Shown here one piece after another: positions 1 through 18,498 of a DNA stretch of 18,498 nt; position 1 is the stretch's first letter, and every line of letters starts with the position of its first letter. Position numbers and translations under genes: made by a program. The stretch is from a virus (lineage: Duplodnaviria; Heunggongvirae; Uroviricota; Caudoviricetes). The notes under the pieces were generated by a model that saw nothing but the letters and a program-made list of their open reading frames with translations, was not told where the DNA came from and did no database searches. Where the stretch lies: IMG/VR virus record IMGVR_UViG_2660238061_000008. The stretch is one strand, 5' to 3'.

Positions 1-174
1 TCAGAAAAAGATGATATTGAATCGCCCATTGAAAAACTGGAGGGCAGCGTCGCTGATCTGAATAAAAAATTGTCGGTGCTGATTCCTTCTGAAGATGAAA
101 AAAAACGCCGCGATGAGCAGTTTGCGGCGTTTTACGATTATTGCATTGAAGTTACTCTCGCAGGAATTTTGTGA
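1..174 (+). CDS. Hypothetical protein, C-terminal fragment (5' end lies outside the window)
   Basis: Frame 1 is open from position 1 to TGA at 172-174; codon usage is E. coli-like (CTG, GCG, CGC, GGC); the antisense frame gives poly-Phe junk, which favours this strand. Not a pinholin-like C-terminus. Confidence 0.4.
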   Translation, partial: SEKDDIESPIEKLEGSVADLNKKLSVLIPSEDEKKRRDEQFAAFYDYCIEVTLAGIL

Positions 175-414
175 AGATTTTTGAGGAGGGTAAATCTCTT
201 CAGTAAGCTTAATGGCGGACGCTGCAATTAATTCAGGAAGGTCCGCAAGGTCATCTGTCAGTGGATATGATGAAAAATCGGCGGCAGTTCTGTTAAGAAG
301 CGCTTTAACTAATTCCTTTTCCTTCTCCGGCAACAAGTTGATTAGAGCTACGACTGCTTGCCTGAGTGCGATTAAATCAGCAAAAGTTTGTTTAGGTAGA
401 TTTGTGTAATCCAT
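1..414 (-). CDS. Questionable hypothetical ORF (137 aa) in the AT-rich spacer upstream of the endolysin
   Basis: ATG at 412-414 (- strand) preceded by AGAGG about 5 nt upstream; N-terminal 80 aa look protein-like, but the C-terminal 50 aa overlap the + strand partial gene and are Phe-rich antisense-like; rare codons (CTA, AGG, TTA, AGA). Confidence 0.25.
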   Translation of the reverse strand: MDYTNLPKQTFADLIALRQAVVALINLLPEKEKELVKALLNRTAADFSSYPLTDDLADLPELIAASAIKLTEEIYPPQKSSQNSCESNFNAIIVKRRKLLIAAFFFIFRRNQHRQFFIQISDAALQFFNGRFNIIFF

Positions 415-527
415 AGTCGCCTCTGTGTTTATCAGATTGACATCCTCCTCCCGCCAGTGCCCATCACTGGTGAGGTAAGATTTAACATATCCGGGGATTT
501 GAAGCCGATAAATCCTGATAAATATCC

Positions 528-1555
<1,028 letters not shown>

Positions 1556-16948: not shown

Positions 16949-17310
16949 ATGCAGGATATTCCACAGGAAACACATCATGAGACGACACGCCTCACTCAGT
17001 CAGCCCAGGTGGTGCTCTGGGAAATCGATCTGACAGTGGTCGGTGGAGAACGTTATTTTTTCTGTAATGAGCAGAACGAAAAAGGTGAGCCGATCACCTG
17101 GCAGGGGCGACAGTATCAGGCGTATCCCATTCAGGGGACGGGATTTGAACTGAACGGCAAGGGCAGTGCTGCCCGTCCGACACTGACGGTTTCTAACCTG
17201 CACGGCATGGTCACCGCGATGGCGGAAGACCTGCAGAGTCTGGTCGGAGGAACGGTGGTCCGGCGTAAGGTTTACGCCCGTTTTCTGGATGCGGTGAACT
17301 TCGTCAACGG
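16949..17310 (+). CDS. L: Minor tail protein L, N-terminal part only (truncated by the N gap)
   Basis: MQDIPQETHHETTRLTQSAQVVLWEIDLT.VGGERYFFCNEQNEKGEP.TWQGRQYQ.YPIQG.GFELNGKG...RPTLTVSNL.GMVT.MAED.QSLVGGTVVRRKVYARFLDAVNFVNG is nearly identical to the lambda gpL N-terminus; similarity ends exactly at the Ns. Confidence 0.9.
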
Positions 17311-17320: not shown

Positions 17321-17440
17321 CACGCCGCATCCGGCTGTCGTGCGCAGATGCCTGATGCGACGCTAACACGTCTTATCAGGCCTACAAATTCTCACGCCAC
17401 CCGTAGGCCGGACAAGACGTTTACGCCGCATCCGGCAGTC
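17321..17440. repeat. REP/BIME cluster (repetitive extragenic palindromes)
   Basis: GCCTGATGCGACGCTAACACGTCTTATCAGGCCTAC (17350-17385) and inverted copy GTAGGCCGGACAAGACGTTTACGCCGCATCCGGCA (17403-17437) match the E. coli REP consensus; a partial copy abuts the gap. Confidence 0.8.
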
Positions 17441-17484
17441 GTGCTGGGATGGGCATACAAAATGCACGTTATCGGCAGTCATCA

Positions 17485-18498
17485 TTATTTGTTGTTGCGC
17501 AGATCCAGCGCCACGTCGACGATCATATCCTCCTGGCCGCCAACCATCCGGCGTTTGCCCAGCTCAACGAGAATATCCACCGCACTTAAGCCATAACGCG
17601 CCGCCGCCGTTTCACAGTGACGCAGGAAGCTCGAGTAAACACCAGCGTATCCCAGCGCCAGCGTTTCGCGATCGACTCGTACCGGTCGATCCTGCAACGG
17701 ACGCACCAGGTCGTCGGCGGCATCCATTAACGCATAGAGATCGGTCCCATGCTGCCAGCCCAGTTTATCCGCGGCGGCAATAAACACTTCCAGCGGTGCG
17801 TTACCTGCGCCCGCGCCCATTCCCGCGAGGCTGGCGTCGATTCGGTCGCAGCCCTCTTCCACCGCCGCGATAGAGTTCGCCACGCCAAGACTCAGGTTAT
17901 GGTGAGCGTGCATGCCAGTTTGCGTTTCTGGTTTCAGCTCTGCTTTCAGGGCGCGGAAACGGTCACGGATATCGCTCATGTTCATCGCACCGCCAGAATC
18001 CACCACATAAATACAGGTCGCACCGTAGCCTTCCATCAGCTTTGCCTGCTTGGCGAGATTCTCCGGCGTGGTCATATGGCTCATCATCAGAAAACCAACG
18101 GTGTCCATTCCGAGCTCGCGGGCATACTGAATATGCTGGGCGGAAACATCAGCTTCGGTACAGTGCGTTGCCACACTAACCACCCGCGCGCCAGCCTGCC
18201 AGGCATTTTTCAGATCGTGAATAGTGCCGATTCCTGGCAGCAACAACGTCGCGATTTTGGCGTGCTTCACCACATCCGCCGCCGCTTCAATCCATTCAAG
18301 GTCGCTATGTGCGCCGAAACCATAGTTAAAGCTGGAACCTTGCAAACCGTCGCCGTGGGCCACTTCAATCGAATCCACGCGGGCATCGTCCAGTGCTTTG
18401 GCAATCTGGCGAACGTTTTCCAGCGAATACTGATGACGAATGGCGTGCATACCGTCACGCAATGTGACGTCCGAGATATAAAGTTTTTTACCGTTCAT
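17485..18498 (-). CDS. mhpE: 4-hydroxy-2-oxovalerate aldolase (3-hydroxyphenylpropionate degradation)
   Basis: 337-aa translation [66 protein letters not shown]... is essentially E. coli MhpE; start codon sits at the window edge (18496-18498). Confidence 0.95.

Follow-up and report, generated by a model that had tools for sequence, protein, structure and literature searches.

A predicted reverse-strand accessory gene and a frameshifting CT duplication ahead of the SAR endolysin gene of a Qin-like Escherichia coli prophage

The window, i.e., the whole stretch of 18,498 nucleotides that was analysed (IMG/VR record IMGVR_UViG_2660238061_000008), is, as judged from its sequence, the late region of a Qin-like lambdoid prophage of Escherichia coli. 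E. coli chromosomes by the hundred match positions 1-1100 at 99.6% identity, and the rest of the window carries a lambda-like head and tail module, which is 98% identical to phages cdtI and Tritos. At the right end of the window, the tail gene L is broken at about position 17310 and fused to the host genes mhpF and mhpE, which is an unusual junction. Positions 1-527 have a G+C content of 42.5% compared to 51% for the whole window, and would belong to the variable interval between the pinholin gene S and the SAR endolysin gene R, of which they would make up the right-hand part. Based on relatives, the order of genes across this interval is expected to be an S21-type pinholin gene, a long YdfR-family gene, a small gene on the opposite strand (gene B), a conserved block of about 85 bp and R (Table 1). 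In E. coli HS, the antiterminator gene Q is followed by essQ (class II holin), a gene for a "YdfR family protein", an 86-aa - strand ORF and rrrQ, and the genes rzpQ, cspI, ynfQ, ynfN and gnsB are located 3' of the rrrQ lysozyme gene. The plaque-forming temperate phages 2H10, PhiR63_1 and PhiR12_2 share the layout of E. coli HS; in 2H10 and PhiR63_1, holin, YdfR family (183 aa), the position of the - strand ORF, lysozyme, RzpQ and cspI follow one another.

Table 1. Positions of genes and sequence features in the left part of the window.
Feature	Position	Strand	Basis or remark
YdfR-family gene, 3' end, coiled-coil "A-domain" extension	1..174	+	phrog_2091; homologues in HS and L071
137-aa ORF	414..1	-	ATG 414-412; TGA corresponds to window bases 3-1
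Gene B, canonical coding part, 86 codons (phrog_2572 / WP_001557934 family)	157..414	-	full-length PHROG match; remote homologues
Read-through tail, 51 extra codons plus TGA at 3-1	1..156	-	antisense to YdfR-family gene; not ancestral coding sequence
CT-to-CTCT tandem duplication (2-bp insertion)	155..156		alignment with HS and alleles
Shine-Dalgarno sequence AGAGG of gene B	420..424	-	5 nt before ATG 414-412; read from sequence
Inverted repeat CGCCAGTG-CCCAT-CACTGGTG, between endolysin gene and B	452..472		common to loci with different - strand cargo
Weak sigma-70-like promoter candidate for B: -35 TTTATC (512-507), 17 nt, -10 TATGTT (489-484)	484..512	-	inferred only
Pre-ATG region with direct repeat GATAAAT (507-513, 517-523), no Shine-Dalgarno sequence	507..527	+	conserved in all arrangements
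rrrQ-type SAR endolysin gene, 177 aa	528..1061	+	PF00959; R21/RrrD homology

The endolysin matches PF00959 (E=5e-25) and the solved structures of R21 and RrrD (3hde, 3hdf and 4zpu; E~1e-17). The triad E35-x8-D44-x5-T50 can be read from the translation, and residues ~7-24 are weakly hydrophobic and rich in Ala and Ser, as expected for the predicted SAR segment. As described in the initial annotation, the ATG at position 528 has no Shine-Dalgarno (SD) sequence within 20 nt and is preceded by an in-frame TGA (516-518) and TAA (519-521); these "stops" are part of the direct repeat GATAAAT-CCT-GATAAAT in the conserved pre-ATG region. The proposal that R is translationally coupled to an upstream reading frame is not supported here, since no conserved reading frame of the + strand terminates at the R ATG, the TTG codon at position 499, the sole candidate start, is allele-specific and the common alleles differ by a 1-nt indel in this region. 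A coupled mini-ORF from TTG 499 to the TGA at 531 is found only in the allele group of the window and was rejected. Translation of R would rather begin at a start region of its own, which is A/T-rich and lacks an SD sequence. Coupling does apply to the Qin prophage of K-12, in which the end of ydfR overlaps rrrQ by ATGA; the homology to K-12 resumes only about 12 nt before the R start, and these nucleotides form the end of ydfR there (...AAA TAT CTA TGA).

The + strand partial ORF is in frame 1, is open at the left edge of the window and ends with a TGA at 172-174. Its codon-usage score of +0.56 is strongly gene-like, and it matches positions 117-168 of the 183 positions of phrog_2091 (E=9.5e-27), i.e., the C-terminal extension only. 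The 183-aa homologue of HS consists of an N-terminal DUF1327 domain (PF07041, E=2.6e-42) and a C-terminal coiled-coil extension, the A-domain. The DUF1327 domain is present in HS and L071, a contig identical to the window over positions 1-560, and its position falls outside the window. Positions 1-171 had no match in Pfam, including Phage_holin_2_1, and encode a hydrophilic coiled coil. This agrees with the earlier statement that the partial ORF does not end like an S21-type pinholin: its product is hydrophilic and lacks PF04971, and the holin is encoded by a separate upstream gene in the relatives. It was also considered whether positions 175-527 are a remnant of the 3' part of a long YdfR gene such as phrog_1085, whose 296 aa would roughly fill the S-R distance. 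This reading was rejected; the C-terminal part of phrog_1085 is a different sequence in Stx phages (L007), and all three + strand frames of 175-527 are full of stops, the conserved frame being on the - strand instead.

The - strand contains the complete 137-aa ORF with an ATG at 412-414 and the SD sequence AGAGG that had been noted in the AT-rich region 1-527. It was suspected that only the first 80 residues or so are protein-like and that the tail is antisense junk, and both assumptions hold. Residues 1-86 match phrog_2572 from end to end (positions 1-86 of 86, E=5.2e-53), and residues 87-137 lie opposite the well-coded + strand gene, with a codon score of -0.05 for the read-through tail vs +0.54 for the opposing + strand frame. 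Residues 1-86 share 98-100% identity with the common allele, which has the same genomic position, and 97-99% with database members. A word-indexed search recovered only E. coli relatives with at least 77% identity and one weak partial match from Salmonella, and a scan of genome contigs found one E. coli locus only. When 1.8 billion representatives were searched exhaustively using phmmer, two remote homologues, P0019 (93 aa) and P0021 (89 aa), were found, which share 41-55% identity with B; together with phrog_2572, they provide the database homologues on which the initial annotation had made the status of the - strand product depend. The contigs encoding P0019 have a terminase region that is 90.6% identical to Salmonella phage Fels-1, and P0019 is located after Rz, not before R; P0021 adjoins the endolysin gene on another contig. 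In four contexts (HS, PhiR12_2, L008 and L011), a gene with the A-domain tail (..K-S/L-x-Q) at its C-terminus runs towards B and shares 53-59 bp with it, and for both remote homologues the overlap with the convergent gene is 59 bp. The A-domain was also found without B (L006, L007). The 86-aa ORF is annotated in HS and PhiR12_2; it is present without annotation in 2H10 and PhiR63_1, two plaque-forming phages that carry an intact B allele. In one allele group, the start codon is changed from ATG to ACG, and a nonsense codon occurs in one sequence; B is thus dispensable in at least some prophages.

In the normal allele, B and the YdfR-family gene overlap by the last 17 codons of each. The allele of the window differs by a duplication of CT within this 53-bp tail-to-tail overlap, and the 2-bp insertion affects both genes. 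On the - strand, GAG TAA is changed to GAG AGT AAC, thereby extending B by 51 codons from 86 to 137 aa. All collected alleles other than that of the window encode an 86-aa ORF ending in ...SQNSCE-TAA, as does the ORF of HS, in which the TAA is the complement of the site that is disrupted in the window. On the + strand, the frame is shifted from position 155 on, and the protein ends in ...CIEVTLAGIL* instead of ...CIEVTRRNFVKIFEEGKSLQ*; the conserved 17-residue tail (RRNFVKIFEEGKSLQ...) is replaced by LAGIL-stop and the long YdfR protein is shortened from 183 to 173 aa. The overlap of the two genes now comprises the whole of positions 1-174. The insertion is found in only one of 29 distinct alleles, that of the window, in an alignment of 84 sequences. 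In complete E. coli genomes, the identity is 99.4% at most, and full-length matches among those sampled cover no more than 525 bp vs 527 bp in the window. Damage to two genes at once by a 2-bp duplication fits a prophage that is defective elsewhere, its tail gene L being cut.

The block of about 85 bp upstream of R is conserved in phages that carry a small - strand gene, or cargo gene, at this position, and it contains the GATAAAT repeat, the promoter candidate of B and the inverted repeat. The promoter candidate agrees with the consensus at 7 of 12 positions, which is below the threshold of the scan, and the consensus promoter scan of the region returned nothing; the promoter-like hexamers and their spacing are kept in L002, L011 and L008, with TATTGT in the latter. 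The inverted repeat at 452-472 may form a hairpin in the 5' leader of B or in the late transcript, or may serve as a protein-binding site. It is absent from Qin of K-12 and from the cargo-less contig L186. In L008, a stable and stronger hairpin of a different sequence occupies the equivalent place, where the GATAAAT repeat and the hexamers are kept and no endolysin gene is adjacent. As the promoter scan was negative and the hairpin region has no match in Rfam, the roles of the promoter and the hairpin are inferences.

Is the - strand ORF a gene at all? It could be a chance ORF antisense to a region in which only the + strand is functional, an annotation trap, as had been considered from the outset. 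The codon-usage score of B is about 0, barely above that of the wobble-sharing antisense frame, and this partner frame, which corresponds to the only + strand ORF of the interval (212-409, 65 aa), is largely open. Within E. coli, B has a dN/dS of 0.3-0.55 and the antisense frame scores alike; within-species values are thus unable to separate the two frames, and distant homologues are needed. The missing annotation in 2H10 and PhiR63_1 and the alleles with a lost start or a nonsense codon also speak for a trap. However, the homologues with 41-55% identity keep the length, the start position and the SD position in three genomic contexts, with an SD-like AAGGA at the same distance in L008 and L011. 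When three lineages were compared, no stops were found in the B frame vs 4-5 in the antisense frame, the B frame had the highest mean BLOSUM62 score, and differences decreased from codon position 3 over 1 to 2, position 2 being the most conserved. The + strand ORF, on the other hand, lacks an SD sequence and starts with ATG or TTG depending on the allele. Because the open frame, the start, the SD position and the 3>1>2 pattern are kept in remote homologues, it is concluded from these sequence comparisons that B is a real protein-coding gene, and an annotation trap is considered unlikely. A related proposal would be that positions 175-527 work mainly as RNA or DNA, with the protein being secondary: an antisense transcript from the B promoter might damp leaky expression of S, ydfR and R in the lysogen, or the hairpin might process or stabilise the late mRNA. 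The conserved hairpin block is common to unrelated cargo genes, a hairpin of different sequence is found at the same place in L008, a G-C vs G-T variant in the stem keeps pairing only in the + strand RNA, and transcription coming from B would proceed into ydfR and S in the antisense direction. Against this, the stem shows no true compensatory change and belongs to no Rfam family, L186 has S and R without the hairpin, and the conservation of B at the protein level (40-55% identity) would be left unexplained by a role as RNA only. A predominantly nucleic acid-based function is therefore regarded as doubtful, albeit somewhat less so than an annotation trap.

Two further alternatives concern the integrity of the locus rather than the nature of B. 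The 2-bp insertion could be a sequencing or assembly error, the real gene being the normal 86-aa form. The change affects a dinucleotide repeat, it is absent from all sampled complete genomes, and the right end of the window has the unusual junction described above. Four independent IMG/VR contigs are, however, 100% identical to the window over positions 1-560, and the exact 137-aa product has a RefSeq accession (WP_159420128.1) and is found on 22 contigs from several sources, compared to at least 1000 contigs with the 86-aa form. With the 137-aa product on record, the allele is taken to be genuine, if rare, and not an obvious error, which makes an artefact very unlikely. Moreover, the cassette could truly have lost its holin, leaving the endolysin gene stranded behind a spacer in a decayed prophage. 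The window itself contains no holin, and, as stated in the initial annotation, the 353 bp before the endolysin gene (175-527) have no holin-like ORF on the + strand; in addition, the prophage has a defect at another place, where gene L is interrupted at ~17310 and joined to mhpF and mhpE, and the region is frameshifted. The claim that a holin is missing is nevertheless, judging from the relatives, an effect of the window edge. The left edge of the window falls on the stop codon of the 137-aa ORF and is located inside the YdfR-family gene, so that the holin would be out of view. In L071, which is one of the four identical contigs, the 173-aa YdfR-family ORF is preceded further upstream by an intact 71-aa pinholin gene, the product of which is nearly identical to S21, and the essQ product of HS is an S21-type pinholin as well (PF04971, E=3.3e-34). 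In both, the pinholin gene is one gene further upstream, about 0.88 kb before the endolysin ATG, and the holin of the window would accordingly be expected about 0.35 kb beyond the left edge. A sample of 79 IMG/VR contigs was drawn using a 19-nt motif located immediately before R, and an S21-type holin is present in every one of them. Between S and R, all 79 also carry a gene with a DUF1327 domain and/or an A-domain; an intervening gene is thus normal in this group of phages, and the expectation that the endolysin gene directly follows the pinholin gene does not apply here. A true loss of the holin seems even less probable than an artefact.

Taken together, the region is likely to be the S-R interval of a Qin-like prophage with a real accessory gene B and a lineage-specific CT duplication that hits both overlapping genes. 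Of the three options put forward earlier for the - strand ORF, the small moron gene and the decayed gene both apply, as a moron-like gene has lost its stop codon by the 2-bp duplication, and the annotation trap is unlikely in view of the remote homologues. B is absent from Qin of K-12, 22 of the 79 contigs have no cargo gene and 39 have another one, and the G+C content of B is 41.7% compared to 51% for the window. B would therefore behave as a moron, an additional AT-rich gene with its own SD sequence. It would probably be transcribed from the weak promoter overlapping the sequence just before the R start codon, and its transcription against the late operon implies that B could be made independently of the lysis genes, e.g., in the lysogen.

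The function of B was approached using profile and structure searches. No family match for B was found in Pfam, NCBIfam or PADLOC, and the PADLOC defence models likewise matched neither the long YdfR protein nor the alternative cargo ORFs of L006 and L007. Hits of B to DUF1823 (E=0.13) and GCIP_C (E=0.011) were far below the cut-off and were rejected; given the weakness of the former, the label "DUF1823 containing protein" used in the PhiR12 phages looks unfounded. The AlphaFold2 model, which is based on an alignment of seven sequences, has helices at residues 8-25, 30-48 and 56-74 and a disordered tail, with a mean pLDDT of 70. Foldseek hits of the model in PDB and BFVD had E-values of 1.6 at best, and among PDB sequences only designed helical repeats (E=0.003) were recovered by a profile search. 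By our own count, B has 13 acidic and 8 basic residues, and no hydrophobic segment was seen, which suggests a small acidic cytoplasmic protein, predicted to consist of three helices. As such, B would act as a small helical binding protein. The literature on ydfR, essQ and rrrQ and on a moron hotspot in the lysis cassette yielded nothing on the B ORF.

B is not the only gene that is found at this position. Behind the shared block, at least seven mutually unrelated families of - strand ORFs occupy the slot, and their start codons are located 103-128 nt from the motif. Most families encode 86-125 aa and one encodes about 210-233 aa, and hhalign detected no homology between the cargo families (probability of 3% at most). 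Among the 79 contigs, a 90-aa family is present in 22, the B family in 18 and all other families in 17, and the slot is without cargo in the remaining 22. It is tentatively proposed that the interval upstream of R in cassettes of the S21/R21 type is a hotspot dedicated to small accessory genes whose transcription opposes that of the late operon, and that B is exchanged together with the tail of its convergent neighbour between E. coli and Salmonella-type phages; on the present evidence, this is a possibility worth stating rather than a probable outcome. If the cargo genes are expressed in lysogens, they might take part in conflicts between phage and host or between phages, or adjust lysis, and the slot would then be an unrecognised accessory locus. 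The double frameshift of the window would in this case be a natural knock-out of one such gene pair.

Apart from this S-R interval with interchangeable small genes on the reverse strand behind a common block, which is the sole point of wider interest, the region is ordinary mosaic lambdoid prophage DNA and the finding is largely ordinary. For annotation, it follows that the 137-aa call represents a frameshifted allele of an 86-aa hypothetical gene, that the partial + strand ORF belongs to the YdfR family (C-terminal part) and that the lysis cassette should not be scored as holin-less.

B is a catalogued but uncharacterised hypothetical gene of the phrog_2572 and RefSeq WP_001557934 family. Members of this family have a length of about 86-93 aa and a stop codon inside the 3' end of the neighbouring gene; the form found in the window differs in that its TAA is destroyed and 51 residues are added (WP_159420128.1). 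Like the lambdoid morons bor and lom of phage lambda, which are additional genes in late operons equipped with expression signals of their own, B is present in some close phages and absent in others, is AT-richer and is located inside the late operon. Lambda bor is oriented against late transcription, as is B. In contrast to bor and lom, B overlaps the 3' end of its neighbour and is not a self-contained cassette, and neither a clear promoter nor a terminator after B was found in the searches of this region. In phage 21, R directly follows S.

According to a recent report (PMC13232886), the YdfR protein of K-12 binds to the catalytic half of RNase E and may also bind RNA. The N-terminal ~72-80 residues, which carry the reported RNase E interaction surface, are common to K-12 YdfR and the long YdfR protein. 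The part inside the window, however, is an unrelated coiled-coil extension, the RNase E-binding domain is encoded outside the window, and there is no link between RNase E and gene B. The closest known system is Qin of K-12 itself (essQ-ydfR-rrrQ-rzpQ/rzoQ), which has a pinholin of the same family (PF04971), a SAR endolysin of the same family, a DUF2514 Rz-like gene, a DUF1327 gene between S and R and the genes cspI-ynfN-gnsB downstream. It differs in that its ydfR encodes only 103 aa and runs into rrrQ, whereas the ydfR gene described here has a different and longer C-terminal domain and is separated from R by a - strand gene and the block of about 85 bp.

Gene B, the reverse-strand gene located between the S21-type pinholin gene S and the SAR endolysin gene R, can also be found outside the lysis cassette. 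In a contig resembling the Salmonella phage Fels-1, a B homologue and a convergent partner of 73 amino acids lie between Rz and the gene for the small terminase subunit (L008, 1335-1779). Next to the pair lies a duplicate of the stretch usually found ahead of the start codon of the endolysin gene; recombination thus seems to have transferred both genes together with it as one unit. Records of the PhiR12-series phages (L002, 2501-2761) name B "DUF1823 containing protein"; this name looks unjustified, as the Pfam match has an E-value of 0.13 and is far below the cut-off.

The interval between S and R is occupied by different reverse-strand ORFs in Stx-converting phages, two of which are listed in the table. 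In phage Stx1_499, an annotated forward-strand protein of 263 amino acids overlaps the reverse-strand ORF by approximately 250 bp, so that either this annotation or the reverse-strand ORF is probably erroneous. Allelic differences were also seen around B itself: two alleles carry an in-frame deletion of 21 bp (window 43-63) in YdfR-long, the forward-strand DUF1327 gene converging on B, and the start codon of B is lost in the same allele group by a change from ATG to ACG. A terminator-like hairpin followed by a T-run is located a short distance upstream of the candidate promoter of B. With approximately one hit per 800 bp expected from the terminator scan, this hairpin may have arisen by chance.

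Coordinates of features in the window and in loci of Stx phages
Feature	Location	Strand	Remarks
Terminator-like hairpin and T-run	547-562	-	within endolysin N-terminal coding region
rzpQ	1058-1555	+	i-spanin gene
ORF nested in rzpQ	1209-1505	+	+1 frame; lipobox-like LTSC motif, Pro-rich tail
Host mhpF and mhpE	~17321-18498	- (mhpE)	mhpE: 4-hydroxy-2-oxovalerate aldolase
ORF, L006	2041-2742	-	~210-233 aa; without family
ORF, L007	2121-2435	-	104 aa; phrog_1853

The window begins with the stop codon of the 137-amino-acid reverse-strand ORF (1-3) and ends with the start codon of mhpE (18496-18498), whose reverse-strand ATG takes up the last bases of the window. Both ends are ORF boundaries, and the window was apparently cut at called genes, leaving the holin gene just beyond it. 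At the right-hand side, homology to the cdtI and Tritos phages ends at approximately 17310, within minor tail protein L, whose match is limited to profile positions 1-92 of 206. None of the complete E. coli genomes carries the junction between phage and mhpF/mhpE, which stems either from truncation of the prophage by a deletion or from chimeric assembly.

Downstream of the endolysin gene, the ORF nested in rzpQ looks, judged by its sequence features, like an rzoQ-type o-spanin gene inside the i-spanin gene, an arrangement like that annotated in K-12, where rzoQ is nested in the i-spanin gene.
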